A stretch of 36,963 nucleotides of DNA from Candidatus Fervidifonticultor sextus (GTDB lineage: Bacteria; Sysuimicrobiota; Sysuimicrobiia; Sysuimicrobiales; Humicultoraceae), in assembly GCA_031459875.1 (NCBI GenBank), contig JAVKHQ010000026.1, positions 1 to 36,963 on the forward strand. Direction: 5' to 3'. Position 1 is the stretch's first letter. Every line of letters begins with the position of its first letter. Shown here piece by piece: positions 11,620 through 34,445 of the stretch. Made by a program: the position numbers and the translations under genes. The notes beneath the pieces were generated by a model. That model saw only the letters and a program-made list of their open reading frames with translations. It was not told the origin of the DNA and did no database searches.

Positions 11620-11627
11620 ACTCCACC

Positions 11628-15968: not shown

Positions 15969-16732
15969 AGAGATCGCGTGACCTCTTCCACTGGGTGCTA
16001 CATCGCGCGCCGTGGACGATCTCGGTGGCGCCGGTGCTGGCCCTGTGGGAGGTCGTCGGCCGGCTGCGGCTGTTTGCGTTCGTCACGCCGCTGACCGATG
16101 TGGCGCGGGCCGGGCTACTCCTGGCTGGCCGCGGGAGCCTTCGGGCGGACCTGGCCCTGACGGTCTCCGCGGTGCTGGTGGGATTCGGCCTGGCGGTCGC
16201 CGCGGGGGTGGCAGTCGGCGTCTTGATGGGACGCTACCGGCTGGCCGAGGCCGTCTTCGGCCTGTACGTGGATATCTTCCAGAGCACGCCGGCGGCGGCC
16301 AAAGTGCCAGTCCTGGTGCTGCTCTTCGGCCTGGGCCGCGGCAGCATCGTGGCCACCGTGTTCCTGTTCGCGTTCTTCGTGATCACGGTCAACGTGTACA
16401 CTGGCGTCCGGCAGGTCAGCCCCACGTTGGTGGAGATGGCCCGCTCCTTCGGCGCGGGCGAATGGACGCTGATTCGCCGCGTGATTCTGCCGGCCGCGCT
16501 GCCGCTGGTGATGGCCGGGCTCCGCATGGGTGTCGGGCGGGCCGTCAACGGGGCGGTACTCGGTGAGATGCTTATCTCCATCGTGGGGATCGGCGGACTG
16601 CTGATGTACTATGGGAGTTCGTTCCGCGTGGATTTCCTCTACGCCCTCATCCTGCTGGTAGTGGCTTTGGCCGCCGTGCTCATGGGGGCCGTGCATGCAA
16701 TCGAGCGGCGGCTGATCCGGTGGATGCGGTGA
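15965..16732 (+). CDS. ABC transporter permease (NitT/TauT type)
   Basis: ATGA overlap with the ATPase stop; EMARSFGA...RRVILPAALP; TM segments. Confidence 0.9.
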   Translation: MKRSRDLFHWVLHRAPWTISVAPVLALWEVVGRLRLFAFVTPLTDVARAGLLLAGRGSLRADLALTVSAVLVGFGLAVAAGVAVGVLMGRYRLAEAVFGLYVDIFQSTPAAAKVPVLVLLFGLGRGSIVATVFLFAFFVITVNVYTGVRQVSPTLVEMARSFGAGEWTLIRRVILPAALPLVMAGLRMGVGRAVNGAVLGEMLISIVGIGGLLMYYGSSFRVDFLYALILLVVALAAVLMGAVHAIERRLIRWMR

Positions 16733-16775
16733 GGAGACGTAGAGGCTCGGACGATCCGGTGAGGAGGCGCACGCC

Positions 16776-17606
16776 ATGACCTACGAGACCATCCTGGTCC
16801 ACCGGGACGGCGGGATTGTTACCGTGACGCTGAACCGGCCGGCCAAGCGCAACGCCATGAACCCGACGCTACACCATGAGATGCACGATGCATTGACTCG
16901 TTTGGCGGATCAGGAGGACGTTCGCGTGCTGATCCTTACCGGCGCCGGCGAGGCGTTCTCCGCGGGCATGGACCTCAAGGAGTACTTCTACGACCTGAAG
17001 GACCGGCCGCACGAGGTGGACCGCATCCGGGTCATCTCGCAGGAGTGGCGCGACCGGAAACTGCGCCTGTTTCCCGCGCCGACCATCGCCATGGTGAACG
17101 GCTACTGTTTCGGCGGTGCCCTGCCGATCGTGGCTTCCTGCGACCTGGCGCTCGCCGCCGAAGAGGCCACCTTCGGCCTCTCCGAGATCAACTTCGGGGG
17201 CATCCCGGCCGGCCCGGTCGCCTGGGCGGTGGGCAACGTGCTCCACGAGCGCGACGCCCTCTGGTACATGCTCCTGGGCGAACCCTTCGACGGCCGGCGC
17301 GCGGCGGAGATCAGGCTGGTCAACAAGGCCGTCCCACGCGACCGGCTCCGAGAGGAGACCCTGATGGTCGCCCGGGCCCTGGTAGGCAAGGACCGTCACG
17401 CGCTGCGGCTGACCAAGGAGTTGTTCCGGCACTCTCGCGGAATGGAGCGCGACGCCGCGCTGGCCTTCGCCAACGCCAAGGTGCGAGAACTGACCCTGTT
17501 GCAGGACGGCCAGTGGATCGAGCAGGGAATCGGACACTTCCTGAAGGGCCAATACCGTCCCGGGCTTGCCGAGGCTCCGGGCCAGCCGGGCAGCGACCCG
17601 GACTGA
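16776..17606 (+). CDS. Crotonase-family protein, p-hydroxycinnamoyl/feruloyl-CoA hydratase-lyase (HCHL)-like
   Basis: LNRPAKRNAMNPTL, AGMDLKEYF, AMVNGYCFGG, FGLSEINFG and the C-terminal EQG...F...PGL typical of the HCHL clade; GAGGAGG RBS. Confidence 0.85.
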   Translation: MTYETILVHRDGGIVTVTLNRPAKRNAMNPTLHHEMHDALTRLADQEDVRVLILTGAGEAFSAGMDLKEYFYDLKDRPHEVDRIRVISQEWRDRKLRLFPAPTIAMVNGYCFGGALPIVASCDLALAAEEATFGLSEINFGGIPAGPVAWAVGNVLHERDALWYMLLGEPFDGRRAAEIRLVNKAVPRDRLREETLMVARALVGKDRHALRLTKELFRHSRGMERDAALAFANAKVRELTLLQDGQWIEQGIGHFLKGQYRPGLAEAPGQPGSDPD

Positions 17607-17633
17607 CATCGCATACGAGGGGAGCGTCGAGCC

Positions 17634-18479
17634 ATGCCTCCAACGCCTCCGGATGGGGTCGGCCAGACGGTGTCCGGCCACGAACTGACCTACGCAACAT
17701 ATCTTTGCCTCGATGAGCTCATGGAGCTCCAGCGAGGACGCACCGGGTCCCACGATGAGTTGCAGTTCATCGTGGTCCACCAGGTCTTCGAACTCTGGTT
17801 CAAGCTGCTGCTGCACGAACTGCGGGCCATCCGCTCGGCCATGCAGCTGGGGGACCTCCGGGGCGCCAACCGGCTGCTGCGCCGGGCCCACGAGATCCTC
17901 CGGATCCTGATCGCCGCCTTCCCCCTGCTGGAGACGATGCGGCCGGCCGACTTTTTGGAGATCCGCGGTGAACTCAAGGAGGCCAGCGGGTTCCAGAGCC
18001 GGCGGTTTCGCGAAATCGAGTTCATCTCGGGGCTCAAGGACGAGCGCTACGTCCGGGTCTTTGAGGACGACCCCGAGGACCAGGCGGTGCTGCGGGCCGC
18101 GCTGCAGGAGCCGACCCTGTGGGACGCCTTCGTGGGTCTGGTCAAACGCAAGGGCTATCCGGCGCAGAGCGATGAGGAGATCATCCAGGCCATCATCGCC
18201 ATTCACGTGGGCGACCGCCACCCCGCCATGGACGCCCTTGTGGACGGCCTGCTGGAGTACGACCTCCTGTTTGCCCAGTGGCGTACGCGGCACGTGCTGA
18301 TGGTGGAGCGGATGATCGGGGCGAAACCGGGGACCGGCCAGAAGCAGGTGACGCGGGTGGCCGGCGCCGGCTATGCCCTGGCCTCGGGCGTGGACTACCT
18401 GAAGACCACCCTGCACAAGCGCTTCTTCCCGCTCCTCTGGCAGGCGCGCACCTTCCTGGGCCGCGGAGGACCTGCGTGA
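17634..18479 (+). CDS. kynA: Tryptophan 2,3-dioxygenase family heme enzyme
   Basis: YATYL, HDELQFIVVHQVFELWFK, ASGFQSRRFREIEF, WRTRHVLMVERMIG (proximal His), GTG...SGVDYL and FFPLLW motifs. Confidence 0.9.
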   Translation: MPPTPPDGVGQTVSGHELTYATYLCLDELMELQRGRTGSHDELQFIVVHQVFELWFKLLLHELRAIRSAMQLGDLRGANRLLRRAHEILRILIAAFPLLETMRPADFLEIRGELKEASGFQSRRFREIEFISGLKDERYVRVFEDDPEDQAVLRAALQEPTLWDAFVGLVKRKGYPAQSDEEIIQAIIAIHVGDRHPAMDALVDGLLEYDLLFAQWRTRHVLMVERMIGAKPGTGQKQVTRVAGAGYALASGVDYLKTTLHKRFFPLLWQARTFLGRGGPA

Positions 18480-19633
18480 AGCCGCTCTCGCGCCGCGCGC
18501 AGGGCGTGCGGCCGTCCGGGATCCGCCAGATGATGGAGCGGGCGCGCCAGATCCCTGACGTCGTCCATCTGGAAGTGGGCGAGCCCGACGCGAACACGCC
18601 GGACCACATCATCCAGGCCGCGGCGGAGGCGGCCCGCGCGGGCTTCACCAGGTACACGCCGTCGGCGGGCCTGCCCTCGCTACGCGAGGCGCTGGCCCGC
18701 AAGTTGTCCGCGCAGAACGGGCTGCCGACCCATGCCGACCAGGTGGTCGTCGCGCCCGGCTCGGTCTTCGCCCTCGCCGCCGCCATGCTCGCGACCGTCG
18801 ATCCGGACGACGAGGTCCTGGTGCCGGACCCGGGGTGGCCCAACTACACCTCGGCCCTGCAGGTGATCGGGGCGCGCATCATCCCCTACCCCCTGCCGCG
18901 CCAAACGGGCTACCTGCCAGACCTCCCGGCCCTGCGTCGCCTGGTGACCGCGCGGACCAAGGCGATGATCGTCAATTCGCCCAGCAACCCGACCGGCGCG
19001 GTCTTCCCGCGGGAGACGGTCCGGGCGCTGACGGACCTGGCGGCTGAGTCGGACCTCTACCTCATCGCCGACGAGGTCTATGAAGAGTTTGTCTTCGAGG
19101 GCGAACACGTCTCGCCCGCCCTGTTCGACCCCGACGGCCGGGTGATCAGCGTGTTCGGGTTCTCCAAGACCTATGCCATGACGGGGTGGCGCCTGGGGTA
19201 CGCCCGGGCGGCCACGGCGGTCGCCGAGATGATGACCAGGCTGGCGGAGCCGTTCGTCTCCTGTCCCTCGTCGGTGGCGCAGAAGGCGGCGGAGGCGGCC
19301 CTGGCCGGACCCCGCACCGAGGTGGAGCGCATGCGCAAGGCCTACCGCCGCCGTCGCGACCTGGTCGTCGCGATCCTCGAGCCGGAAGGGCTCCTGGCCT
19401 CGGTCCCCCGCGGAGCGTTCTACGCGCTGGTGGACCTCTCGCGGATCGCGATGGATTCCTTCGCCCTGGCCGCGCAACTACTGGAAGAGGAGCGCGTGGC
19501 GACGGTACCCGGAGAAGCTTTTGGCCAGAGCGGAGCCGGGCTCGTGCGCATCTCCTTTGCCGCCGAACCGCGGTTGCTGGAGGAAGGGTGCCGGCGGATC
19601 GTGCGCTTTGCGACCCGGCGGGTGGGCGTGTGA
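18476..19633 (+). CDS. PLP-dependent aminotransferase class I/II (candidate kynurenine aminotransferase)
   Basis: LEVGEPD, YTPSAG, NSPSNPTG, ADEVY and GFSKTYAMTGWRLGY motifs; GTGA-coupled to kynA upstream and kynB downstream. The substrate is an inference. Confidence 0.9.
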   Translation: MKPLSRRAQGVRPSGIRQMMERARQIPDVVHLEVGEPDANTPDHIIQAAAEAARAGFTRYTPSAGLPSLREALARKLSAQNGLPTHADQVVVAPGSVFALAAAMLATVDPDDEVLVPDPGWPNYTSALQVIGARIIPYPLPRQTGYLPDLPALRRLVTARTKAMIVNSPSNPTGAVFPRETVRALTDLAAESDLYLIADEVYEEFVFEGEHVSPALFDPDGRVISVFGFSKTYAMTGWRLGYARAATAVAEMMTRLAEPFVSCPSSVAQKAAEAALAGPRTEVERMRKAYRRRRDLVVAILEPEGLLASVPRGAFYALVDLSRIAMDSFALAAQLLEEERVATVPGEAFGQSGAGLVRISFAAEPRLLEEGCRRIVRFATRRVGV

Positions 19634-20304
19634 GCGCGCGCGCGGCGGCCAGCACGCTCTACGACATCTCACGCCCGATCTCGCCGGCGATCGCCGTGTG
19701 GCCGGGCGACCAGACATTCCGGGTGCGCTGGACGATGCGCCTGGCCGCCGGTGATGCCTGCAACGTGGCCGCGGTGACCATGAGCGTGCACACCGGCACG
19801 CATGCCGACGCGCCCTACCACTTCGATGAGCAGGGGGCGGCCATTGCCGACGTGCCCCTCGAGCCCTACGTGGGTCCGGCGACCGTCGTGGAGGCCGCCG
19901 GCGGGTCCATCGACGTCGACACCCTGGACGGGCTCGACCTGGCGCGCATCCGGCGGATCCTCTTCAAAACCGGGGCCAGCGGATTGCCCGAGTTCCGGTG
20001 GGACACCGAGTTTACCTATCTGACCGAGCGGGCGGCGCGACGGCTGGCCGACTGCGGCGTGCTCCTGGTTGGCACCGACGCGCCGTCGGTGGACGCCCAC
20101 GACAGCAAGACGCTGGCGGCGCACCGGACCCTGGCCCGCGGCGGTGTGGCGATCCTGGAGTCGCTCCACCTGGCGGCGGTGCCGCCGGGCGAGTACGACC
20201 TGATGGCGCTGCCACTCAGGCTGGTGGGGCTCGATGCCTCGCCGGTGCGCGCGGTGCTCCGGCCGCTGGCTGCGCCGGACGCGCGCGACCTCAAGGGGGT
20301 GTGA
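19630..20304 (+). CDS. kynB: Cyclase-family arylformamidase (kynurenine formamidase)
   Basis: DISRPI...WPGD, HTGTHADAPYH metal motif, GTDAPSVD, AHR, ILESL, LPLRL...DASPVRAVL; two genes downstream of TDO. Confidence 0.85.
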   Translation: MSARAAASTLYDISRPISPAIAVWPGDQTFRVRWTMRLAAGDACNVAAVTMSVHTGTHADAPYHFDEQGAAIADVPLEPYVGPATVVEAAGGSIDVDTLDGLDLARIRRILFKTGASGLPEFRWDTEFTYLTERAARRLADCGVLLVGTDAPSVDAHDSKTLAAHRTLARGGVAILESLHLAAVPPGEYDLMALPLRLVGLDASPVRAVLRPLAAPDARDLKGV

Positions 20305-20309
20305 CGATC

Positions 20310-21290
20310 ATGTTCCGAAGAGTGCTGGCCGTTGTCCCGCTGCTGCTCCTCCTGATCGGATCGGCAGCCGAATCTGCACCCGGAGGGCCGGTGGAGATCC
20401 GATTGGGCCACGGGTTCGCCGCCGAAGAACAACTCTGGCTGATGGCCGCCCGACCGGACATCGCGCCCAACCAGGGCAAGGCTTATACCCTGAAGCTGGT
20501 CGCATTCCGGGCCAGCGCCGACCGCCTGACCGCCTACGAGGCCGGCCAGCTCGACGGCGGGACCATCTCGGGTCCCACCTCGCTGTTTGCCGCGGAGCAG
20601 GGCCTGCCGCTCAAACTGGTGGCCAGCGTCTCGCGCGAGGTGCCGGGCGGCAACTGGCACAACACGACCTACCTGGCGCTGGCAGACTCGGGCATCCGGT
20701 CCCCGCGGGACCTGCGGGGCAAGACGATCGGCATCGTGGACTTCAAGAGTGCGACCGACCTGTGGGCACGCACCGCGGTGGCTTCGGGCGGGCTGGACCC
20801 CAACCGGGACGTCCAGTACGTGGTCGTCCCGTTCCCGGCCATGGGGGAGGCGCTGCGCGCCAGGCGCATTGACGTCGGCACCTTCCCCAACCCCTTCTAC
20901 ACGGTGGAGCGGAGCCGGGGCGGCGTGGTGGAGGTCTTCACATCCAAGACCGGCGTCCCGTTCGACGAGGAGTTGATCCTGCTGTTCTTCCGCCCCGAGT
21001 TCGTCCAGCGGAACGAGGCCGCGGTCCGGGCGTTCCTGCGCGACTTCGTGGCGGCGACCCGATGGTATCTGTCCAATCCCCGAGAGGCGCGCCAGGCGCT
21101 CATTGACCGGCGCTTCGTCCTGACGCCGGCCGCCATCTACCTGGACATGCAGGACTACTACCGGGAGCCGACGGCCCGGATTACCGTGGAGGCGTTGCGG
21201 AGGGTCCAGGAGCTCCACCTGAAGGTGGGCTGGCAGTCCAGAGCGCTGGACCTGCGGAAACTGGTGGACAACTCGCTGCTACCCTACTAG
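20310..21290 (+). CDS. ABC transporter substrate-binding protein (NitT/TauT/SsuA-like), system 2
   Basis: Signal peptide; DLRGKTIG and VPFPAMGEALRARRID motifs; first gene of an SBP-ATPase-permease-permease set. Confidence 0.88.
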   Translation: MFRRVLAVVPLLLLLIGSAAESAPGGPVEIRLGHGFAAEEQLWLMAARPDIAPNQGKAYTLKLVAFRASADRLTAYEAGQLDGGTISGPTSLFAAEQGLPLKLVASVSREVPGGNWHNTTYLALADSGIRSPRDLRGKTIGIVDFKSATDLWARTAVASGGLDPNRDVQYVVVPFPAMGEALRARRIDVGTFPNPFYTVERSRGGVVEVFTSKTGVPFDEELILLFFRPEFVQRNEAAVRAFLRDFVAATRWYLSNPREARQALIDRRFVLTPAAIYLDMQDYYREPTARITVEALRRVQELHLKVGWQSRALDLRKLVDNSLLPY

Positions 21291-21333
21291 GTTCCATTCA
21301 TCCGGTCGCCTGAACCTGGCACTGGAGTATCCC

Positions 21334-22140
21334 GTGCCGCTCCTCGAGGTCACCAACCTGTCCAAGGTTTACGGCAACGGCCGCGGCCGGCTGGAGGCCA
21401 TCCGCGACCTGACCCTCACCATGGAGGAGGGGGAGTTCGTGGCGGTCGTCGGTCCCAGCGGCTGCGGCAAGAGCACCTTCCTGCACATCCTGGGCGGGTT
21501 CATCCCGCCCAGCGACGGGTCCATGCGGGTGGCCGGGCGGGCCGTGCGCGGTCCGGGTCCGGACCGGGGGGTGATGTTCCAGGAACTGGCTCTCTTCCCG
21601 TGGCGGACGGTGTTGGGCAACACCGTGTGGGCGCTCGAAGTGCAGGGGTACCCGCGGCCGGAGCGTGAGGCGATCGCCGAGCGCTACCTGTCGCTGGTGG
21701 GCCTGCTGCCGTTCAAGCACGCCTATCCCTGGGAACTCTCAGGCGGGATGAAGCAACGGGTGGCGCTGGCTCGGGTGCTGGCCTTCGACCCCGCGGTCCT
21801 ACTCATGGACGAGCCTTTCGGGGCCCTCGACGCCCAGACGCGGGAACTGCTGCAGGAAGAGCTGCAGCGCATCTGTTTCGAGACCGGCAAGACCGTGCTC
21901 TTCGTCACCCACGACATCGAGGAAGCCGTCTACCTGGCCGACCGTGTGATCGTCTTCTCAGCGCGGCCCGGCCGCGTCAAGGCTACGGTGCCGATCGCGC
22001 TGGCGCGGCCCCGACGCCTCGAGGTCAAGAAGAGCGGGGAGTTCGTGGCGTACCGGAATCAGCTCTGGGACCTGCTGCGCGAGGAGGTCCTGAAGGCCCG
22101 TCAGGAGGCGGAGGCGGGCCAGGCGGCCGGGGATGGCTGA
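21334..22140 (+). CDS. ABC transporter ATP-binding protein (NitT/TauT type)
   Basis: GPSGCGKS, LSGGMKQR, LLMDEPFGALD and VTHD motifs. Confidence 0.95.
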   Translation: MPLLEVTNLSKVYGNGRGRLEAIRDLTLTMEEGEFVAVVGPSGCGKSTFLHILGGFIPPSDGSMRVAGRAVRGPGPDRGVMFQELALFPWRTVLGNTVWALEVQGYPRPEREAIAERYLSLVGLLPFKHAYPWELSGGMKQRVALARVLAFDPAVLLMDEPFGALDAQTRELLQEELQRICFETGKTVLFVTHDIEEAVYLADRVIVFSARPGRVKATVPIALARPRRLEVKKSGEFVAYRNQLWDLLREEVLKARQEAEAGQAAGDG

Positions 22141-22987
22141 CCTCTCTCCCCAGCGGGTCCTGCCCGCAGCGGCCGTCCGATCGCCGGGGTGGGGCGCGGG
22201 GGTCGGGCTGGTGGGACGGATCCGCGCCCTGGCGGTCTCCCTGGCCGCGCCCGCCGTCCTGCTGGCCGTCTGGGAGGGCCTGGCGTCCCTGGGCGCGCTG
22301 CCTGCGTTCCTGGTCAGCCCCAGGATCGTCGCCAGGGAACTGGCAGCCCTGGCGGCCAGCGGTGACCTCTTCGAGCACGCGTCGGCCAGCCTCTACCGCT
22401 CGCTGGTCGGGTTTGCCATGGGCTCCGCGTCGGGACTGGCGCTGGGGTTGCTCTCGGGGGTCTCGCCTGTGGTGGCCGGGTTCTTCGACCCGCTGGTGTC
22501 GCTGACGAACCCCGTGCCCAAGGTGGCGACCCTGCCGATGCTGGTGGTCTGGTTCGGGATCAGCGACCTCTCCAAGATCCTGCTGATCGCCGTCTCCTGT
22601 TTCTACCCGTGTTTCATCGCCGCCTTCCACGGGGTCCGGTCGGTCGATCCCCTGTGGATCTGGGCGGCGCGGAACATGGGGGCGCGCCCGTCACAGGCCT
22701 TCTTCAGGGTCGTCATGCCGGCGACCGCGGCGCAGATGTTCAACGGGTTGCGGGTGGCGCTGGCCCTCTCGTTCATCCTGATGCTGGCGTCCGAGTTGAT
22801 GGGGTCGTCCAACCGCACCGGGCTGGGCTTTCTGCTCCTCTCCGCCGACGCCGGCGGCCGCTTCGACCTGATGTTCGCGGCGATCGCGGCGATCGCGATG
22901 GTAGGACTCGTCTGTGACCGGCTGCTGCTGACGGCGCGCCGGGCGCTGGTGCACGGCGAGCAGGAAGGCGGAGGCACACATGGTTAG
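22133..22987 (+). CDS. ABC transporter permease (NitT/TauT type)
   Basis: PVPKVA, WFGI and AARNMGA...FFRVVMPA motifs; TM segments. Confidence 0.9.
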   Translation: MADLSPQRVLPAAAVRSPGWGAGVGLVGRIRALAVSLAAPAVLLAVWEGLASLGALPAFLVSPRIVARELAALAASGDLFEHASASLYRSLVGFAMGSASGLALGLLSGVSPVVAGFFDPLVSLTNPVPKVATLPMLVVWFGISDLSKILLIAVSCFYPCFIAAFHGVRSVDPLWIWAARNMGARPSQAFFRVVMPATAAQMFNGLRVALALSFILMLASELMGSSNRTGLGFLLLSADAGGRFDLMFAAIAAIAMVGLVCDRLLLTARRALVHGEQEGGGTHG

Positions 22988-23774
22988 CTTGCTGACCTGG
23001 CCGCGCGCCTGGCTGTCCCGCACCTACTCCATCTTCATCGTGCTGGGGCTGTGGGAACTGGTGGCGCGCTCCGGATGGGTCAACCCGCGGCTCTTCCCCA
23101 GCCTGGCGGCTGTCGCCGAGCAGGTCTGGGTACTGGCAGCCAGCCAGATGCTGGTCGTGCACGCGACGGCCACGCTGTTCCGCGTGTTCGCGGGGTTCGG
23201 GGCGGCGGCCGTGCTGGGCGTCGGGCTGGGGTTCCTGATGGCCCGCTACGAGGTGTTCGGCCGCCTGGTGGAGCCCATGTTCTCGTTCGGGTATCCCGTG
23301 CCCCGGGTGGCCCTCTACCCGATCTGCATCTTCCTCTTCGGGATCGGGCACCTCTCGAAGGTCGTGCTGGTCGCCCTGGAGTGCCTGTATCCGATCGCCA
23401 TCAAGACGTACTACGGCACCCGCGCGGCCAACCGGCTGTACCTGTGGTCGGCGCAGAGCATGGGCGCGTCGCGCGCACAGGTGTTCCTGAAGGTGGTCCT
23501 GCCGGCGGCGGCGCCGTCGGTCTTCACCGGGTTCCGCATCGCGCTGCCGATCGCCATGGTCATCGTCATCGTGACCGAGATGATCAGCTCGACCCGCGGG
23601 TTGGGCTGGCTCATCACCTACGCGTCCGCCTCGTTGTCGAGGGCACAGGTATTCGCCGGCGTGGCGGCGGTCGCGGCGATCGGGTTTGCGCTGGACCGCA
23701 CCCTTGCGGTTGTCCGCAACCGGCTCATCTTCTGGGAACGGGAATCGCTGTCGCTGGTCGACGGGAGCCAATGA
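22980..23774 (+). CDS. ABC transporter permease (NitT/TauT type)
   Basis: PVPRVALYP, SAQSMGAS...KVVLPAA and TEMI...GLG motifs. Confidence 0.9.
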   Translation: MVSLLTWPRAWLSRTYSIFIVLGLWELVARSGWVNPRLFPSLAAVAEQVWVLAASQMLVVHATATLFRVFAGFGAAAVLGVGLGFLMARYEVFGRLVEPMFSFGYPVPRVALYPICIFLFGIGHLSKVVLVALECLYPIAIKTYYGTRAANRLYLWSAQSMGASRAQVFLKVVLPAAAPSVFTGFRIALPIAMVIVIVTEMISSTRGLGWLITYASASLSRAQVFAGVAAVAAIGFALDRTLAVVRNRLIFWERESLSLVDGSQ

Positions 23775-23796
23775 GGAGAGAGGGAGCATATCGCCC

Positions 23797-24651
23797 GTGA
23801 CGGCCCGCCCACCCTGCCGCATCCGCCGTCCCGGTCACGTCGCCATCGCCGTCCCCGACGTGCCCCTGGCGCTGGACTACTACACGCGGGTCCTGCGTAT
23901 GGTGCGCGTCGAGGAGAGCGACGGTGTGGTCTACCTGCGGTCGAGGTTCGAGCACCACTGCCTGGAGTTGCACCGGGCGGAAGCCCCCGGGCTGCGGCAC
24001 GCCGGGTGGGAGACCGACAGCGACGAGGCCACGGAAGCGCTCCGGGCGCACCTGGCGGGGCTCGGGGTCCCGGTCCGCGAGGCCCCGCCGGAGCCCGGGC
24101 GGCGCGGCATGGCCTTCCAGTTCCAGGACTCCAACGGCCTGTGGCACGAGGTCTACCGCGCGATGGATCGGGTGCCGGCCCTGGTGGCCGACGGGCCGTT
24201 CCCAATCCTGCGCCAGGCGCACTTCGCCTTCAACACGCCCGACGTGGACCGGGAGCTGGCGTTCTTCAAGTCGGTCGGGTTCCGGGTCTCCGACTGGCTG
24301 CCGGGGCTGCAGGGCTCGCTGCGCTGCAACCCCGACCACCACGGGATCTCGCTGTTCAAGTTCGAGCGGCCCGGGCTGCACCACCACGGCTACGACATCG
24401 GGACCTGGGAGAACCTCAAGGTCATCCTGGACTGGATGGCCTTGCAGGGCGCGCCGGTGGAAGTCGGTCCGGTGCGGCACGCGACGGGCAACAACATTTC
24501 GGTCTACATCCGCGACCCCCACCGCATTCGCGTCGAGCTCTACTGTGAGATGGAGCAGATTACCGACGACGAGGACCACGAAGCCCGTCGGCATCCGCAC
24601 GTGTTCGACCTCTGGCAGCAGAAGCCTCCGCCGCCCGGCTTTCGAGAGTAG
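23797..24651 (+). CDS. Two-domain VOC-family extradiol (catechol 2,3-type) dioxygenase
   Basis: GHVAIAVPD, AHFAF (His), RCNPDHHGI, LHHHGY (His) and GPVRH...YIRDP...VELY (His/Tyr/Glu) match the type I extradiol pattern. Confidence 0.85.
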   Translation: MTARPPCRIRRPGHVAIAVPDVPLALDYYTRVLRMVRVEESDGVVYLRSRFEHHCLELHRAEAPGLRHAGWETDSDEATEALRAHLAGLGVPVREAPPEPGRRGMAFQFQDSNGLWHEVYRAMDRVPALVADGPFPILRQAHFAFNTPDVDRELAFFKSVGFRVSDWLPGLQGSLRCNPDHHGISLFKFERPGLHHHGYDIGTWENLKVILDWMALQGAPVEVGPVRHATGNNISVYIRDPHRIRVELYCEMEQITDDEDHEARRHPHVFDLWQQKPPPPGFRE

Positions 24652-24669
24652 AGCCCAGGAGGGACTCGC

Positions 24670-25986
24670 ATGCCATCCCTGGAGACCACGAGCGAACGGG
24701 GAGACGGACAGGACACGATGAATCGGCTCTGCGGCGTTCGGCCGGATCGGGGCGAGATTCCCGCGTTCATCTTCGCAGACCCCGAGGTTTACCGGTTGGA
24801 ACTGGAGCGGATCTTCACCCGGTGCTGGCTGTTCGTGGCGCACGAGTCGGAGATCCCATCGCCCGGCGACTATGTGACCCGGTTCATGGGTGAGCACCCG
24901 GTGATCGTCGCCCGCGACGAGGACAGTGTGATTCGCGTCCTGCTCAACGTCTGCCGCCACCGCGGGATGCGGATCTGCCGGGCGGATCTGGGCAACGCCT
25001 CGCACTTCCGCTGCCCATACCACGGCTTCACCTACAAGAACACCGGTGAGTTGATTGGGGTGCCGTTCGAGCGCGAACTCTACGGTGACGTGCTGGCAAA
25101 GGAGCGGATGGGCCTGATCCGGGCCAGGGTGGAGTCCTATGCCGGGCTGGTCTTTGCGACCTGGGACGAGCAGGCGGAGCCGCTGCGGCAGTACCTGGGG
25201 CCCATGACCTGGTACCTGGACCTGCTGGCGGGCCGGGCCGAGATGGAAGTCGTCGGGCCGCCCCACCGGTACGAGATGGCGACCAACTGGAAATTGCCGG
25301 CTGAGAATGCCGCCTCGGACGCCTACCACACCATGCACACCCACGCCTCCATCGCCGAGATCGGCCTGACCCCGGCCGTGACCTGGGCTAAGGACGGCTA
25401 CCACATCAGCGCCGGCAACGGACACGGCGTGATGATCGGCGCCCCCACCCGCCGGTTCATTTTTGCCGAAGATCTCATCCCGGAGTTCGAGCGGCGCCTC
25501 AGCCCCGCGCAGATGACGGTGCTACGGCAGATGGCGCACATGCCGGGCACGGTCTTTCCAAACCTCTCCTTCCTGATTTCGGCGGTGACCTTCAAGGGTC
25601 GGTTCATCTCGCACACGGAGTTGCTGTTCTGGCAGCCCAAGGGGCCCCACCGGATCGACGCCTACTCGTGGTTTCTGGTTGAAAAACACGCGCCCGACTG
25701 GTGGAAGGAGTTGTCCCGCCAAGCGTTCATCGTTACGTTCGGCCCTTCGGGGATGCTCTCACAGGATGACAGCGAGAACTTCACCCAGATCGCCCGCAAC
25801 GTCCGCGGCCCGGTGGCCGGCCGCCTGGCGTTCAACTACGAGATGGGACTGCACCGCGCTCCGATGCAGGATTTCCCGGGCCCCGGGCAGGTTTACGAAG
25901 GGAAGTACAACGAGGCGAACGCCCGCGGCTTCTACGCACGGTGGCTGGAGTTGATGCGCGACGGCGGCCCGCGTCCGGGCGCATAG
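24670..25986 (+). CDS. Rieske ring-hydroxylating dioxygenase, alpha subunit
   Basis: Rieske motif CRHRG...CPYH; mononuclear Fe site NWKLPAEN..SDAYH..HTH and QDDSEN; overall pattern resembles Gram-positive PhtAa/NidA-type enzymes. Confidence 0.95.
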   Translation: MPSLETTSERGDGQDTMNRLCGVRPDRGEIPAFIFADPEVYRLELERIFTRCWLFVAHESEIPSPGDYVTRFMGEHPVIVARDEDSVIRVLLNVCRHRGMRICRADLGNASHFRCPYHGFTYKNTGELIGVPFERELYGDVLAKERMGLIRARVESYAGLVFATWDEQAEPLRQYLGPMTWYLDLLAGRAEMEVVGPPHRYEMATNWKLPAENAASDAYHTMHTHASIAEIGLTPAVTWAKDGYHISAGNGHGVMIGAPTRRFIFAEDLIPEFERRLSPAQMTVLRQMAHMPGTVFPNLSFLISAVTFKGRFISHTELLFWQPKGPHRIDAYSWFLVEKHAPDWWKELSRQAFIVTFGPSGMLSQDDSENFTQIARNVRGPVAGRLAFNYEMGLHRAPMQDFPGPGQVYEGKYNEANARGFYARWLELMRDGGPRPGA

Positions 25987-26027
25987 CGGTCGACGAGGGC
26001 CCTTCCTGGGGAGGCAGTGTTATTGTT

Positions 26028-26531
26028 ATGGAAATCACACCGCAGATCCGCGAAGAGCTCTTGGAGGTGCTCTACCTCGAAGCGGAACTGTTGGATGAGG
26101 GTCGGCTCGACGAGTGGCTAGACCTGCTGGCCGAGGACGTCGCGTACCGGATGCCGATCCGGCTGACGCGAGAGCGGGCGCGCTCCGACGATTACTCGAC
26201 CGACACGCAGTTCTTCTGGGACGACCGCGCCTCGCTGGCGCTGCGGGTGCAGCGGCTGCGGACCGAGTTTGCCTGGGCCGAGGACCCTCCCTCCCGCACC
26301 CGCCACTTCATCTCCAACGTGCGGGTCCGTCCCGCCGGCGGTGATGAGGTCGAGGTGCGCAGTTGCGTGCTGATTTACCGGAACCGGGGCGAGACCACGG
26401 AGTTCGACCTGATCAGCGGAGAGCGCCAGGACGTGTGGCGGCGCGCTGGCGGCGCATGGCGGCTGGCCCGGCGGGTCTTCATGGTGGACCAGGCCACCCT
26501 CGGAACCCGAAATCTCGCGATCTTCGTGTGA
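26028..26531 (+). CDS. Ring-hydroxylating dioxygenase, beta subunit
   Basis: EAELLD...WL, YRMP, WAEDPPSRTRH, GERQD and RNLAIF motifs. Confidence 0.95.
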   Translation: MEITPQIREELLEVLYLEAELLDEGRLDEWLDLLAEDVAYRMPIRLTRERARSDDYSTDTQFFWDDRASLALRVQRLRTEFAWAEDPPSRTRHFISNVRVRPAGGDEVEVRSCVLIYRNRGETTEFDLISGERQDVWRRAGGAWRLARRVFMVDQATLGTRNLAIFV

Positions 26532-26551
26532 GGCAACAGGCGAGGATCGGC

Positions 26552-27931
26552 ATGTGGCCCTGGCGTTCTGACGACAGGGTCCTGGTCTGGCTCGCCGCGG
26601 CGTTCTCGCTGAGCGTCCTGTTGAGCATGGCGATCACGCTCGGGCTGGTCGCCGCAGGAGAGCCCCTCGCGCGCGCGGCGGGGGCCACGGCCCCCGCCGA
26701 AGCCGGTCGGCTGCTTGCAGCCACCCATGTGGACTCGCTCCGGCCAATGATCGCCGCCTACGAGAGGAAGACGCAGGCCCCCAGCGGCGATCTGTACGCG
26801 GTGTTCTTCGCCGAGGGGGTCAAGTTCCAGTATCCCCCTGCGTCGCTGCTGATCTTTGACCTGTTCCCTCGCGCGATGACCCGCCTGGTCGACGGGCGGA
26901 TCACCGGAGACATGCGGCGGTGGTGGACGTGGCTCTCGCGTGCGGCGGTGGCGCTGACCCTGCTGGGCTCGGCCGCGATCCTGGAGATCGGCGTGCGCCG
27001 GCAGGCGCCGGGCGGCCCTCCGCGGCCGGGCCATACGGCGGTACGGGTCGGGCTCTCACTGGCGCTTGGGGCGATGTTCTACCCCGTGACGAAGGCCTAC
27101 AGCCTGGGACAGATCCAGGTATTCCTCAACGCGCTGATCGCCTTCGCCGTGCTGGGCTACCTGGTGGAATGGCGGATGCTGACCGGAGGGTGCCTGGGCC
27201 TCTGCTGTCTGGTGAAGCCGCAGTATGGGTTCGTCCTGCTCTGGGGACTGGTGAGGCGACAGTGGCAGTTCTCGCTGGGATTCGCGGGCGTCCTCATCCT
27301 TGGGCTGATCGTCTCGCTGGTCCGGTTTGGCCTGAGCGATCACCTGGGCTACCTCGACGTCGTTCGTGAACTCTCGCGCGTGGGCGAGGCCTACTGGGCC
27401 AACCAGAGCGTCAACGGCCTGCTGAACCGGCTGCTCGGGACCGGGAGCGCCGCACAGTTCTCCCGGACAGAACTCCCACGCTACCACCCTGTGGTGTATA
27501 CGCTCACCATCGTCAGTGCTGGGACGATCTTGATGCTCGCACTCTGGGCTCGCAGAAGAGGTCCTCGCCGTGACGGCGGCGTGAGTGATCTGGGGGCGGT
27601 GCTGGTGGGGGTCACTATGGCGTCACCCATTGCGTGGGAGCATCACTACGGAGCGCTGCTGCCGATCCTGGCGGCGGCCCTGCCGGGGCTAATTGCCGTC
27701 CGGCCGTTCGGGCGCGCGACAGGCCTGTGGCTTGCGCTCGGCTATGCGGCCGTGGCGAACGTCATGCAGCGGCCCGCCCTGCTGTTCGGGAGCCCTTGGC
27801 TCGGCCTGGCCGGCTCCCACCTGTTCTTCGGCAGTCTGATAACCTTCGTGCTGCTCTTGCGGCTGCGCTCGTCTTGGCAAGACGATCGGCCCGGTGGGCG
27901 CCGCCAGGAGCGTGTGCCCGCGCTCGCCTGA
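26552..27931 (+). CDS. GT87-like (DUF2029/PimE-type) membrane glycosyltransferase
   Basis: KFQYPP, GQIQVF, LVKPQ, NQSVNG and SPIAWEHHY motifs; multiple TM segments. Confidence 0.85.
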   Translation: MWPWRSDDRVLVWLAAAFSLSVLLSMAITLGLVAAGEPLARAAGATAPAEAGRLLAATHVDSLRPMIAAYERKTQAPSGDLYAVFFAEGVKFQYPPASLLIFDLFPRAMTRLVDGRITGDMRRWWTWLSRAAVALTLLGSAAILEIGVRRQAPGGPPRPGHTAVRVGLSLALGAMFYPVTKAYSLGQIQVFLNALIAFAVLGYLVEWRMLTGGCLGLCCLVKPQYGFVLLWGLVRRQWQFSLGFAGVLILGLIVSLVRFGLSDHLGYLDVVRELSRVGEAYWANQSVNGLLNRLLGTGSAAQFSRTELPRYHPVVYTLTIVSAGTILMLALWARRRGPRRDGGVSDLGAVLVGVTMASPIAWEHHYGALLPILAAALPGLIAVRPFGRATGLWLALGYAAVANVMQRPALLFGSPWLGLAGSHLFFGSLITFVLLLRLRSSWQDDRPGGRRQERVPALA

Positions 27932-27946
27932 CGGAGGGCTGTGCGA

Positions 27947-29731
27947 GTGCGCCCTGAGGTTTCGACCCAACGGCAGGAGAAACAGGATCTGCATCCGTTG
28001 ATCGCGCTTCTCGCCTGGATGCCGCCGCAGGTTGGCGTGCTCGCCGCCGCCGTGCTCGGCGCGGTGGCCGCGTGGGAGGGCCGGTTCGACATGGATCCCG
28101 ACGGGGTGTCGTACCTGGACATGGCCGACGCCTATGCGCGGCGCGACTGGCAGAACGCGCTGAACGGCGTCTGGAGCCCCCTTTACTCCTGGATCCTGTT
28201 GCCCTTCCTGCGGGGGCTGCGGCCGGACGGCTACTGGGAGTTTCCCCTTGTCCACGCCGTCAACTTCCTTCTGTACCTCGGCGCGCTGGCGGCCTTTGCG
28301 TACTGCCTCGGGCAGATCGTGGCCTACCGGCACTGGCGTGCGGCCGGGGGTCCCGGGCGGTCGACCGAGCCATCCCTGCCGGACCGAATTGTATACGCGA
28401 CGGGGTATGCGGTCTTCGTGTGGGGATGTGTGGTCTCCATCAGGGTGAGCCACGTGGGGCCGCATGTGGCGCTCGCGGGCCTGACGTTCCTGGTCACCGG
28501 ACTCCTCCTGCGCCTTCGGATGCATCCGGATGAATGGCGGAGTTGGGCGGCGTTGGGATTTGCGCTGGGGTTGACCTACCTCGCCAGGACGTCGGCCCTC
28601 GCCTTTGTCGCGGTATTCTTCGGCTTTGCGCTGCTGCGGCTGCCCGCGGGATGGCTGCGCGCCAGAATGACCGCTCTGCGTCCGCTGCTCGCCCTGGGAG
28701 TCTTCGCCCTGGTCGCCGGCGTGTACGCGGTTCCGCTCCTTGCGGTCAAGCGGCAGTTTCCCGGGAGCGACCTGGTGAGATTGAACTATGCCTGGTACGT
28801 CAACGGCGTTCCGATCTTGCACTGGCAGGGTGATCCGCCCTACGGCCGCCCGGTCCATCCCACGCGGGTGCTGTTTGAACGCCCGACGGTGTACGAGTTC
28901 GATGGACCGGTGGGGGGGACCTATCCCCCGTGGTACGATCCCGCCTACTGGTACAGGGGGATCGAGCCCCGCTTCAGCCTGAGGGGACACCTCTGGCGTC
29001 TCCGAGAAAGCGTGGGCACCGACTCAGGCTATCATGCGATTCCTTTCTCGTGGTCGTTTGGGGCTCTGGCGTACATCCTCGCTGCCGCCTTCTTGCTGCG
29101 CCGGGGACTGTTCTCATGGCACCGCTGCAAGGAGTACGCGGAATTATACGTTCCGACCCTTCTGGCGCTCGTGTCGTATCCGGTCCTCACCATCTTGCCG
29201 GAACGGTTCCTCGGAGCCTTCCTGCCGCTGCTCTGGATGGGCACGATCGTCTGCGTCTCGTGGCCTGCCGACCGGCCCGACCGCGCCAGGAGCGCGACCG
29301 CAGCGGTCTATGGGATTCTTGTGTTTCATCTTGCGATCTCCACGGTGATGGTCGGCGCTGTGGCGGTGAAGGGTCTGGTGGTGCCGCCCCGTCCCACGCA
29401 CTGGCGCATCGCCCAGGCTCTGCACAGTCACGACATTCCCCCGGGGAGCAAGGTGGCCGTGATGGGCCGGGCGAGGCACGCGCACTGGGCCAGGCTGGGG
29501 CGGATGCGCATCGTGGCGGAGATCCGCATCCGCGGGGGTGCAGCCCACGAGTTCTGGGAAGTCACCGACGACCGGCGGTATGAACTTCTGACCAGGCTGC
29601 AGGCGGCCGGTGTGCACGCCGTCGTGGTGGATCCCGCTGCGCGGCCGGACCCCGCCATCCCTGACGATGTCGGGCCATGGGCCTGGATGGAGCTGAAGGA
29701 GACCGGCCACCTCGTGCTGGTCCTTCGCTGA
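27947..29731 (+). CDS. Polytopic membrane protein, probable GT-C glycosyltransferase (paralog A')
   Basis: DGVSYLDMADAY..RDW.NA..VWSPLY and HWQGDPP...GTYPPWYDPAYWY; collinear with 6542-8311; GGAGGG RBS at 27933-27938. Confidence 0.65.
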   Translation: MRPEVSTQRQEKQDLHPLIALLAWMPPQVGVLAAAVLGAVAAWEGRFDMDPDGVSYLDMADAYARRDWQNALNGVWSPLYSWILLPFLRGLRPDGYWEFPLVHAVNFLLYLGALAAFAYCLGQIVAYRHWRAAGGPGRSTEPSLPDRIVYATGYAVFVWGCVVSIRVSHVGPHVALAGLTFLVTGLLLRLRMHPDEWRSWAALGFALGLTYLARTSALAFVAVFFGFALLRLPAGWLRARMTALRPLLALGVFALVAGVYAVPLLAVKRQFPGSDLVRLNYAWYVNGVPILHWQGDPPYGRPVHPTRVLFERPTVYEFDGPVGGTYPPWYDPAYWYRGIEPRFSLRGHLWRLRESVGTDSGYHAIPFSWSFGALAYILAAAFLLRRGLFSWHRCKEYAELYVPTLLALVSYPVLTILPERFLGAFLPLLWMGTIVCVSWPADRPDRARSATAAVYGILVFHLAISTVMVGAVAVKGLVVPPRPTHWRIAQALHSHDIPPGSKVAVMGRARHAHWARLGRMRIVAEIRIRGGAAHEFWEVTDDRRYELLTRLQAAGVHAVVVDPAARPDPAIPDDVGPWAWMELKETGHLVLVLR

Positions 29732-29785
29732 CCAACGCACCGGTCCGGCTGGCGCGATGATCCGCAAGCCAGGTGTGGAGGAGTG

Positions 29786-30028
29786 ATGATGGCCCCACGC
29801 GACGATGCTCCGGTCATCGAGTTGAGCAACGAGTTCGCCACGATCAACATCCGCAAGGTGAGCACGCGGAACGGCGAGCGTCTGGAAATTGCCGCCCCCC
29901 GTCTAGGGTACCGGATTCTCCTCGACGCCCTGGCGCTGGAGAGCCTGACGTGGCAGACCATGGACACCTTCAGCCGGTTCCTCCAGACGCCGTTCGGACC
30001 GGTGGACGGACCCGGGCACGGATCCTGA
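29786..30028 (+). CDS. Small (~80 aa) conserved protein associated with ring-hydroxylating dioxygenase operons
   Basis: NEFA...TRNGERL.I.AP......LDALALESLTWQ...FS..L..P resembles the small ORF I recall between the beta-subunit and dihydrodiol dehydrogenase genes of actinobacterial phthalate dioxygenase operons; strong GGAGGAG RBS. Confidence 0.75.
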   Translation: MMAPRDDAPVIELSNEFATINIRKVSTRNGERLEIAAPRLGYRILLDALALESLTWQTMDTFSRFLQTPFGPVDGPGHGS

Positions 30029-30029
30029 G

Positions 30030-30797
30030 ATGCGCCTGGCCGGCAAGGTCGCGATCATCACCGGCGCCGGCGGCGGGATCGGCCGCGAGGGCGCGCGGCT
30101 CTTCGCGGCGGAAGGCGCCAAAGTGGTCGCCGTTGACATCCGGGCAGATGCCGTCGAGGAGACGGCCGACGCCATCTGGCGGTCCGGAGGGGAGGCCGTT
30201 GCCGTCGAGGGCGACATCGCCGACGCCGAGGTCCACTCCCGCTCGGTCCGGACGGCGCTGGAACGGTTCGGTCGGCTTGATGTCCTCTACTACAACGCCG
30301 GGATGGTCAGGCGCGGCCCCGGAGGCGACGTCGGCCTTGAAGAGATCACGCTGGACGTGTGGGACCGGATCCTGGCCGTGAACCTCACCGGCGTGTTCCT
30401 GGGATGCAAGTACGGGATCCCCGAACTGGTGAAGTCCGGCGGGGGGTCGGTGATCATCACCGCGTCTGTGGGCGCCCTGGTCGGCCAGCGGGCGCACAAC
30501 CACGCCTACGTGGCCTCCAAGGCCGCTCTGGTGGGGCTGACCAGAAACCTGGCCCTGGAGTACGCTCCCCGCGGGGTGCGCGTGAACTGCATCTGTCCGG
30601 GACAGATCCATACCGACATGATGGCGCACTACTACGACGACCCTGTGGCACGACAGCAGTTCATAGACTGGACGCCGATGGGGCGGTTCGGCGAACCCCG
30701 CGAGATCGCGCAGGTAGCGCTCTTTCTGGCCTCCGACGAGTCGTCGTTCGTGACCGGGGCGGTCGTGGTCGCAGACGGCGGTTGGACCGCGCTCTAG
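30030..30797 (+). CDS. Classical SDR (candidate cis-dihydrodiol dehydrogenase)
   Basis: TGAGGGIG, AVDI, YNAG, AYVASK and RVNCICPG motifs; starts 1 nt after the small-protein stop. The substrate is inferred from context only. Confidence 0.9.
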   Translation: MRLAGKVAIITGAGGGIGREGARLFAAEGAKVVAVDIRADAVEETADAIWRSGGEAVAVEGDIADAEVHSRSVRTALERFGRLDVLYYNAGMVRRGPGGDVGLEEITLDVWDRILAVNLTGVFLGCKYGIPELVKSGGGSVIITASVGALVGQRAHNHAYVASKAALVGLTRNLALEYAPRGVRVNCICPGQIHTDMMAHYYDDPVARQQFIDWTPMGRFGEPREIAQVALFLASDESSFVTGAVVVADGGWTAL

Positions 30798-32344: not shown

Positions 32345-32371
32345 CCGCGCGCGGGACAAGGGGCAACGACA

Positions 32372-33376: not shown

Positions 33377-33386
33377 GGGTGCCGGG

Positions 33387-34346: not shown

Positions 34347-34445
34347 GACCCGTACGCCACCCACAGACCTGAGGGTGCGACCGCCGACCGGTCGGGACTG
34401 TGCCTGAGACATAGCGATGTCCAGTGTCAGACAGTGGCCAGATCG

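Follow-up and report, generated by a model that had tools for sequence, protein, structure and literature searches.

In the canonical kynA-kynB-kynU operon, tryptophan 2,3-dioxygenase (TDO) and a KynB-type formamidase are encoded together with a kynureninase. Kynurenic acid, which is among the main end products when animals break down tryptophan, is degraded by bacteria, and the quinoline pathway of pseudomonads does so by kynurenate 7,8-hydroxylase (EC 1.14.99.2), a dihydrodiol dehydrogenase (EC 1.3.1.18) and 7,8-dihydroxykynurenate 8,8a-dioxygenase (EC 1.13.11.10). The Delftia acidovorans group is another user of this pathway. The classical enzymology of kynurenate degradation is said to be that of Taniuchi and Hayaishi in 1963. 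The sole source named for bacterial kynurenate degradation in the accessible part of a 2024 review is Horibata et al. 1961 (PMC11354673). Our literature search, from which subscription journals were largely absent, found no paper that ties kynurenate to a Rieske oxygenase or names the genes of the 7,8-hydroxylation. Here we describe a string of catabolic genes at positions 12598-30797, all the discussed genes being on the + strand, in a stretch of 36,963 nucleotides (the window) from Candidatus Fervidifonticultor sextus. Judged by its gene content, this string may supply the genes that have long been missing for the breakdown of kynurenic acid by bacteria.

The window is one whole contig (C19) of a 3.05-Mb genome, 96.19% complete and labelled G000 below; genes were called from Pfam and NCBIfam profile matches together with inspection of start sites. 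With the canonical operon the locus shares TDO and the KynB-type formamidase, translationally coupled. It differs in having no kynureninase and, between kynA and kynB, a class Ib aminotransferase that we call AT1. The GTG start of AT1 (18476-18478) overlaps the TGA stop of TDO (18477-18479), and the GTG of KynB (19630-19632) overlaps the TGA of AT1 (19631-19633). Both overlaps were read directly and each GTG is in frame with its gene, which bears out the coupling by GTGA overlaps proposed in a preliminary description of this DNA. The three reaction types of the pseudomonad quinoline pathway map one to one on a Rieske oxygenase, a short-chain dehydrogenase (SDR) and an extradiol dioxygenase, which are conserved neighbours here as candidate enzymes; the difference is that our organism belongs to the uncultured hot-spring Armatimonadota and not to the pseudomonads. 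The preliminary description had matched these enzyme classes to hydroxylation, dehydrogenation and extradiol cleavage, and had placed an importer, the extradiol dioxygenase, Rieske alpha and beta and an SDR in co-directional order; the families are as it stated, and Pfam and NCBIfam place all of them on the + strand. It had started the unit at 17634, too far downstream: the actual start lies upstream and takes in an omitted crotonase (16776-17606) and an ATP-binding cassette (ABC) system with an SDR (12598-16732). The genes are the following.

12598-13587, + strand: SBP1, NMT1/THI5-like binding protein of the first ABC system (PF09084), with AAGGAGG ahead of the ATG at 12598
13574-14371, + strand: SDR1, classical short-chain dehydrogenase within the first ABC system (PF13561, PF00106; generic SDR in NCBIfam)
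14368-15195, + strand: perm1a of the first ABC system (PF00528)
15186-15968, + strand: ATPase1 of the first ABC system (PF00005)
about 15965-16732, + strand: perm1b of the first ABC system (PF00528)
16776-17606, + strand: crotonase of the p-hydroxycinnamoyl-CoA hydratase/lyase (HCHL) family (NF006588, 306.7 bits)
17634-18479, + strand: TDO (PF03301, 155.9 bits)
18476-19633, + strand: AT1, class Ib aspartate/aromatic-type aminotransferase, candidate kynurenine aminotransferase (PF00155, 251 bits)
19630-20304, + strand: KynB-type arylformamidase of the cyclase family (PF04199; TIGR03035)
20310-21290, + strand: SBP2, NMT1/SsuA-type binding protein of the second ABC importer, signal peptide read
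21334-22140, + strand: ATPase2 of the second ABC importer (Pfam/NCBIfam)
22133-22987, + strand: perm2a of the second ABC importer (Pfam/NCBIfam)
22980-23774, + strand: perm2b of the second ABC importer (Pfam/NCBIfam)
about 23797-24651, + strand: two-domain VOC (type I) extradiol dioxygenase (PF00903 twice), its start placed from the 290-amino-acid orthologue in locus L057 and start-site inspection
24670-25986, + strand: Rieske alpha (PF00355, PF00848)
25941 or 26028 (alternative starts) to 26531, + strand: Rieske beta (PF00866, 145 bits; NF007479, 176.8 bits, cut-off 145)
about 26528-27931, + strand: GT87-like glycosyltransferase (PF09594)
27941-29731, + strand: multi-pass membrane protein of 596 amino acids
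29786-30028, + strand: protein of 80 amino acids, with GGAGGAG ahead of the ATG
30030-30797, + strand: SDR2, candidate cis-dihydrodiol dehydrogenase (PF13561, PF00106)
30860-30878, + strand: terminator-like hairpin after SDR2 (8 pairs, 6 of them G-C; T-rich tail)

We propose that TDO would open tryptophan to N-formylkynurenine, KynB would take formate off this product and AT1 would transaminate the resulting kynurenine to a diketo acid, which would cyclise spontaneously to kynurenate. Kynurenate, made inside the cell or imported, would then be cis-dihydroxylated on its benzene ring by the Rieske oxygenase, the diol would be rearomatised by SDR2 to the catechol 7,8-dihydroxykynurenate, and the VOC enzyme would cleave the latter. 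The crotonase would take its turn afterwards, on the ring-fission side chain in the form of a CoA ester. The importer would also admit external kynurenate or related acids, and electron-transfer partners would have to be supplied from elsewhere in the genome. Families, residues, gene order and the lack of a kynureninase are observed; all of the substrates and the role of the crotonase are inferred. We regard this route from tryptophan through kynurenate to ring cleavage as quite possible, while stopping a little short of calling it probable; it is the simplest account of all the associations reported here, a good lead and not a finding.

TDO is present in a single copy in the genome. It reaches 155.9 bits with PF03301 (cut-off 34.9) and, across positions 5-263 of 264, 207.3 bits with TIGR03036, whose equivalog cut-off of 390.7 is not reached. 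Alignments to 2nox and 2nw7 show that the enzyme keeps the distal histidine (FIVVHQ), the arginine of EIRGEL before SGFQS and the proximal histidine (WRTRHV); as in the TDO of Xanthomonas, the arginine presumably holds the substrate carboxylate while the two histidines are presumably the distal and the proximal haem residue. That the gene might encode a tyrosine hydroxylase working with a DOPA-cleaving VOC enzyme was rejected, as the TDO residues are kept and the orthologues pair with a kynureninase in 14 genomes. A search of plasmids with TDO gave a best match of 46% in Nonomuraea, with no related neighbours. KynB scores 218.2 bits over the full TIGR03035 profile, about 5 bits under the cut-off of 223.05, and 78.5 bits with PF04199 (cut-off 23.1); it is present in only three of the 34 genomes of the family (G000, G004 and G008).

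The preliminary description had noticed that no kynureninase is encoded in the window, and indeed we found none there. When the check was extended to the whole genome, TIGR01814 again gave no match at E ≤ 0.001, and tblastn with the kynureninase of genome G008 returned only class V aminotransferase-type matches, at 24-28% identity.

AT1 has among its relatives the aspartate aminotransferase of Thermus (286 bits) and the aromatic aminotransferase of P. horikoshii (262 bits). Aspartate-type aminotransferases can reportedly act as kynurenine aminotransferases, to go by the title of a 2001 paper of Han et al. By tblastn, the window genome holds six further aminotransferase matches to AT1, at 28-41% identity. 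In a tree of 27 rows AT1 falls in a clade of 11 (support 99/95), made up of eight members that lie next to TDO or KynB and three that are linked to an M20 peptidase. The distance of the six other matches and the kyn-linked clade indicate at the level of sequence that AT1 is a dedicated paralogue and not the housekeeping copy.

The three M20-linked members, at loci L060-L062, are 62-68% identical to AT1. In L061 an ornithine-cyclodeaminase-like gene stands with the pair, as do genes for an amidohydrolase, an amidase and a peptide-type binding protein. The AT1 clade seems to be put to another use at these loci. M20 deacylases are also found by the Rieske genes of L007, L008 and G001, and we rejected the idea that the two sets are the same: they have no mutual BLASTP match at 1e-5, so that no link between AT1 and the Rieske genes comes from M20.

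The distribution of these genes was followed in 94 genomes of the phylum, an alpha subunit of at least 70% identity being counted as a Rieske orthologue. TDO occurs in 22 of them and Rieske alpha in 10. A kynureninase-like gene is found in 21 genomes, under the curated cut-off in all cases, and in 14 of these it lies immediately beside TDO, as in the ordinary pathway. Only one of these 14 genomes (G008) has a Rieske orthologue, against seven of the eight that have TDO and no kynureninase-like gene; among the 72 genomes without TDO there are two (G021 and G022). The single exception among the eight is G024, which is unpublished and fragmented. Within the family of 34 genomes, an AT1 orthologue is present in five (in one at 51% only), the crotonase in four and the VOC enzyme in 11. 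The four genomes with both AT1 and the crotonase (G000, G004, G008 and G009) all carry a Rieske orthologue, while the reverse is true of only 4 of the 10 Rieske genomes. Such an asymmetry is expected if the genes around TDO and AT1 (module A below) feed those around the Rieske oxygenase (module B below).

Rieske alpha contains CXH-X17-CXXH at residues 95-118 (C95-R-H...C-P-Y-H118) and the iron motif DAYHTMHTH. By these motifs and its separate beta subunit (PF00355, PF00848, PF00866) the oxygenase is of the alpha3beta3 type. The best solved relatives of alpha are the naphthalene dioxygenase of Rhodococcus (2b1x, 383 bits), phthalate 3,4-dioxygenase (291 bits) and HcaE (282 bits); the anthranilate dioxygenase models score far lower, with 155 and 145 bits. 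The upper naphthalene pathway of Rhodococcus (NarAa/NarAb, cis-diol dehydrogenase, extradiol dioxygenase and hydratase-aldolase) follows the same logic of a dioxygenase, then a dehydrogenase, then extradiol cleavage. Plasmid-borne NarA-like genes are about 46% identical to ours, and relatives of the window add a weakly DHDPS-like protein by the VOC gene; however, identities of at most 46% are too low for orthology, and no dedicated ferredoxin or reductase lies here. We do not claim that the DHDPS-like protein is a NahE-type hydratase-aldolase, its family matches being weak (26-31 bits). The NMT1/SsuA-type importer and the lactamase-like and molybdenum enzymes of the relatives point to a polar, probably nitrogen-containing acid as substrate and not to a hydrocarbon. 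In the same direction, the naphthalene dioxygenase relationship, the HydA/HydB, DHDPS-like, LLM and molybdenum enzymes of the relatives, and a weak best match of SBP2 to the pyrimidine-binding ThiY (3ix1, E 2e-8) would give module B a bicyclic or N-heterocyclic flavour.

A scan of species-representative genomes with Rieske alpha gave 16 loci. In five of these (L005-L009, alpha 70-78% identical) alpha and beta are followed without interruption by a small gene and SDR2: Rieske beta and the SDR2 orthologue (68-72%) are separated by a few hundred bases, which the gene of the 80-amino-acid protein fills. With G001, G009 and G021 included, Rieske beta and the small gene are immediately followed by an SDR2 orthologue of 66-72%. 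The window and its closest relative, L004/G004 (88%), are alone in having the GT87-like gene and that of the 596-amino-acid protein inside this unit, after Rieske beta and ahead of the small gene; L005-L009 and G008 lack the two at that position. To judge from this comparison, the pair is an insertion that splits the Rieske unit and is not part of the pathway, and the distant SDR2 belongs to the Rieske oxygenase. The SDR that the preliminary description had merely listed as coming later is then a conserved partner of the Rieske pair, and it is because of this conserved place after Rieske beta that we consider it a candidate dihydrodiol dehydrogenase.

The 80-amino-acid protein has no Pfam or NCBIfam match. 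Among its 173 homologues some are labelled 'dihydrodiol dehydrogenase' by their sources, yet it is far too small for such an enzyme. It is 58-97% identical across the Armatimonadota, Thermus and Thermomicrobium proteins compared directly; homologues of 61-97% come also from Streptomyces, Nocardia, Hydrogenibacillus and Chloroflexota. In Thermus oshimai and Thermomicrobium roseum the homologue is plasmid-borne and occupies the same place after Rieske beta. Small-protein homologues have the following positions.

L006, 11786-12049
L144, 13649-13903
L145, 13934-14191

Locus L145 is a cluster of the T. roseum DSM 5159 megaplasmid (316349-341584) with a GntR regulator, a DHDPS-family protein, Rieske alpha and beta, a protein of 85 amino acids, an SDR, a molybdenum hydroxylase, an amidohydrolase, two crotonases, an SsuA-type ABC system and an AMP-ligase. 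It shares with our locus the Rieske core, the small protein (60% identity) and the kinds of accessory genes. It differs in that alpha is only 42% identical and that its 25 kb include no TDO, aminotransferase or formamidase. T. roseum is a cultured thermophile, whose cluster is amenable to bench study.

As to the VOC enzyme, the HpaD and C23O models of NCBIfam match it under their cut-offs. Alignments to 1mpy and 1f1r show that all six metal (2-His-1-Glu) and catalytic (His, His, Tyr) columns are kept, with roles that we take to be those of the corresponding residues in XylE and HPCD. The crotonase exceeds, with 306.7 bits, the curated equivalog cut-off of NF006588 (276). Its matches to solved relatives, PDB 6p5u (230 bits) and the HCHL 2j5i (about 214 bits), span the full length, and in the printed alignment it is, by eye, about half identical to solved CoA-dependent HCHLs. 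It thus resembles the HCHL of ferulate and coumarate catabolism; however, no feruloyl-CoA synthetase or vanillin dehydrogenase lies alongside, and its constant neighbours are TDO, AT1 and KynB. It adjoins them in G004, G008, L057, L058 and L063 at 77-93% identity and is the tightest partner of TDO and AT1. Orthologues of SBP1 flank the crotonase cluster in G008 and G009, as do those of perm1a, ATPase1 and perm1b (62-76%), and SDR1 is not kept at its position in either genome. We think that the crotonase probably acts further down, on a CoA ester. CoA-dependent steps are made plausible by the T. roseum cluster, where two crotonases and an AMP-ligase stand by the same Rieske core. In G009 a family III CoA-transferase lies about 6 kb upstream of the crotonase.

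The tight association of the crotonase with AT1 and TDO, and the resemblance of the VOC enzyme to catechol 2,3-dioxygenase and homoprotocatechuate dioxygenase, would also suit a bypass of kynureninase. AT1 would then make 4-(2-aminophenyl)-2,4-dioxobutanoate, a C-C hydrolase, perhaps the crotonase without CoA, would split it to anthranilate and pyruvate before cyclisation, the Rieske oxygenase would yield catechol and the VOC enzyme would be a catechol 2,3-dioxygenase. Some crotonase-fold enzymes, such as 6-oxocamphor hydrolase, do split beta-diketones without CoA. In addition, genome G001, which has TDO and no kynureninase-like gene, carries its TDO by 2-aminobenzoyl-CoA-type genes, an aminotransferase and an amidase. 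We find such a bypass improbable, as the crotonase passes the HCHL cut-off and is about half identical to enzymes that depend on CoA, and alpha is far nearer to the naphthalene, phthalate and HcaE enzymes than to the anthranilate models. Moreover, SDR2 is a fixed partner although an anthranilate dioxygenase has no need of a diol dehydrogenase, and a DmpG-type aldolase, as used in a catechol meta pathway, is lacking in the genome.

The region of G001, which represents a sister genus (L042, G001:C1:1127000-1146999), was annotated with Pfam and comprises TDO with an AMP-ligase, an acyl-CoA dehydrogenase, RidA, a crotonase and a fusion of FAD-monooxygenase and OYE; a divergent aminotransferase-amidase pair stands next to this set. 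TDO is beside an AMP-ligase in G002 also, where tblastn gives an aminotransferase match of 38% and a crotonase match of 28%. We take the G001 set to be that of the 2-aminobenzoyl-CoA route; it may be another kynureninase-free route to anthranilate.

Compared with its relatives, the string at 12598-30797 is, on the evidence of gene order, a mosaic of two separable modules. Module A consists of the first ABC system, the crotonase, TDO, AT1 and KynB together with a VOC gene of its own type; module B consists of the second ABC importer, Rieske alpha and beta, the 80-amino-acid protein and SDR2. In G001, G021 and L009 module B is led by orthologues of SBP2, ATPase2, perm2a and perm2b (64-78%). Next to come after this importer are a GntR regulator, present in G001 and L009, a protein of 350 amino acids with weak likeness to DHDPS, a VOC gene and caprolactamase-like HydA/HydB; the VOC of G001, G021 and L009 is 58-64% identical to that of the window. 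In G001 the same strand continues with an Opp-type ABC system and an M20 deacylase, then Rieske alpha and beta, the small gene and SDR2. Contig C5 of G009 has the same module-B core with an LLM oxidoreductase and a molybdenum hydroxylase.

Module A was followed by a metagenome scan with AT1, in which 80 loci were kept; 76 have no kyn-type neighbours at the thresholds used, many of the contigs being short. In L057 the crotonase, TDO, AT1 and VOC genes follow each other without gaps (78, 63, 69 and 70% identity). L058 has crotonase-TDO-AT1, L059 TDO-AT1 and L063 perm1b-AT1-KynB-crotonase-SBP2. Contig C3 of G009 carries SBP1-perm1a-ATPase1-perm1b-crotonase, two unrelated genes, a VOC gene (71% to that of the window) and GT2 genes; about 13 kb past the VOC and GT2 genes, AT1 (63%) stands beside TDO.

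In the window genus (G000, G004 and G008) the modules do not just stand side by side but are interleaved. The window has the importer of module B between KynB and the VOC gene of module-A type, and the order in G008 is perm1a-ATPase1-perm1b-AT1-KynB-crotonase-SBP2-SBP1-ATPase2-perm2a-perm2b-VOC-Rieske alpha-beta-small gene-SDR2. This genus has lost the VOC gene of module-B type and has that of module-A type directly ahead of the Rieske genes; the DHDPS-like protein and an orthologous HydA are missing from it as well.

Two unrelated modules in one operon would explain this separability: the kyn part would convert tryptophan to kynurenate or some other kynurenine product, in the service of nitrogen salvage or export, while the Rieske, SDR and VOC enzymes, supplied by an ABC importer of their own, would act on a phthalate-like, naphthoate-like or other heteroaromatic carboxylate that has nothing to do with tryptophan. 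Module B occurs without TDO, AT1 and KynB in G021 and G022 and far from TDO in G001-G003, and its partners differ among relatives, being an Opp-type ABC system and M20 in L007, L008 and G001 and HydA/B with LLM in L009 and G009. Phthalate 3,4-dioxygenase is the second-best solved relative of alpha, and G009 encodes a decarboxylase with weak likeness to PhtC (72 bits, cut-off 200). PatDABC, presumably a transporter of the same family as the ABC systems here, is relevant too. In Rhodococcus jostii RHA1 it is described, in the accessible part of one report, as an ABC transporter that imports phthalate (PMC10973024). Against such independence, the modules are interleaved in the three genomes of the window genus, which dropped the VOC gene of module B and placed that of module A just before the Rieske genes; a VOC gene directly follows AT1 in L057; Rieske orthologues are found in seven of the eight genomes with TDO and no kynureninase-like gene and in only one of the 14 with both side by side; and they are present in all four genomes with AT1 and crotonase. 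We consider two unrelated modules possible, on balance rather unlikely.

Returning to the route from tryptophan to kynurenate and ring cleavage, the mosaic itself weighs against it, and so do a number of other observations. The kyn and Rieske genes are physically linked in one genus only (G000, G004 and G008). The related genomes are few and not independent, those with AT1 and crotonase belonging to two genera only. In G009 the TDO-AT1 pair and the Rieske cluster are on different contigs, in G001 TDO is 0.9 Mb from the Rieske cluster, and in G008 it sits elsewhere, as TDO-kynureninase-AMP ligase. Module B without TDO in G021 (98% complete) and G022 means that its substrate may have another source than tryptophan. 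In L057, as on contig C3 of G009, module A has VOC and crotonase genes of its own and no Rieske genes alongside. Of the two VOC genes of G009, one (71%) is close to the crotonase, AT1 and TDO and the other (62%) is with the Rieske genes, and with a separate VOC gene for each module the VOC-Rieske adjacency of the window genus could be secondary. The TDO set of G001 points to anthranilate over kynurenate.

Some partners of the proposed route are missing as well. HydA/B and the DHDPS-like protein of the relatives are absent from the window genome, and a CoA ligase or transferase for the crotonase was not seen among the scanned open reading frames of the window. SDR2 has only generic SDR matches in NCBIfam and the PDB: the 25 NCBIfam families listed include none of BphB, NahB or HcaB type, and its 22 PDB relatives are generic or have other substrates. 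The window contains neither a ferredoxin nor a reductase gene, and the Reductase_C domain is absent from the genome.

The genome has two small soluble Rieske ferredoxins (G000:C23:50000-68000, L137), one in a suf operon (SufB-SufD-Rieske-SufS-NifU) and one immediately ahead of nuo genes. As electron donors to its three oxygenases these two are the only obvious candidates. Two further Rieske alpha/beta pairs, 30-33% identical to that of the window, lie at G000:C66:38000-52000 (L138), with no ferredoxin or reductase nearby.

The preliminary description had already proposed this quinoline route, with an aminotransferase in place of kynureninase. The enzyme classes, the lack of kynU, the partnership of SDR2 and the seven-of-eight pattern support it; the separable modules and a linkage limited to one genus do not. 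It had also raised the co-occurrence of these genes in other genomes and, as an argument against itself, modules that are unlinked in relatives. TDO-AT1 adjacency does recur (G009 and L057-L059), with VOC after AT1 in L057, while the full linkage stays within one genus, and the unlinked state is found in part, in G009, G001 and G021. What is new over that description is a larger unit, SDR2 as a true member and a locus composed of two modules.

Concerning the integrity of the string, three further samples from the study that yielded this genome gave contigs that bridge five junctions (TDO/AT1, AT1/KynB, KynB/SBP2, permease/VOC and Rieske beta/GT87). These contigs are short and bridge single junctions, none spanning the whole stretch. 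Terminator-like sites in the region as a whole are not above chance (11 found, 7.8 ± 2.6 expected), and a promoter scan of the region found none. Genes for the envelope and polysaccharides enclose the catabolic string at 1-12536 and 30910-36963 (UbiA, GFO/IDH/MocA, DUF6798, GT87, PMT_2, GT2, LPG_synthase_TM and GT1). We excluded a class IV aminotransferase (11616-12536) from the unit, its orthologue in G008 being about 9 kb off, among polysaccharide genes. Window genes at 1474-3237 and 35704-36537, far from the cluster, have orthologues in the flanks of L057 and L058 (71% and 79% for the upstream neighbours, which correspond to 1474-3237), and a GT2 gene follows VOC in both L057 and G009. From the orthologous flanks, the module has therefore been resident for some time among these envelope genes.

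This neighbourhood of envelope glycosyltransferase genes, seen in the window, G008, G009 and L057/L058 with orthologous flanks, could suggest a biosynthetic module, in which crotonase, TDO, AT1 and VOC build a quinoline or a similar small molecule from tryptophan, for instance a pigment, a chelator or an envelope decoration. The kynurenine pathway does feed known biosynthetic clusters, and that of quinolobactin combines TDO, a formamidase and a kynurenine aminotransferase. Going by a 2004 title of Matthijs et al., quinolobactin is reportedly made from xanthurenic acid. We hold this to be very improbable. In the window we saw none of the non-ribosomal peptide synthetases, methyltransferases, ligases or exporters that characterise such clusters. 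The two importers, whose binding proteins carry signal peptides, speak for uptake, a quinoline nucleus does not survive extradiol cleavage, and the shared flanks may only reflect the common ancestry of close genomes.

If the two modules were unrelated, the locus would be an ordinary mosaic of aromatic-acid catabolic genes. If the route through kynurenate is true, three enzyme activities without genes would gain sequences, kynurenate degraders would become recognisable in genomes and metagenomes, and bacteria would have a second kynureninase-free way to use tryptophan. Taken to its full extent, an idea that we consider possible but on balance rather unlikely, the string and its relatives would be the first genetic handle on a quinoline pathway that is 60 years old: a dedicated aminotransferase would replace kynureninase, the NarA-like Rieske oxygenase with the 80-amino-acid protein would be the kynurenate 7,8-dioxygenase, SDR2 the dihydrodiol dehydrogenase and the VOC enzyme the 7,8-dihydroxykynurenate dioxygenase, and the crotonase would free the ring-fission side chain as acetyl-CoA. 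The Rieske core found in other thermophiles would then mark a wider, so far unrecognised family of quinoline-carboxylate degraders.

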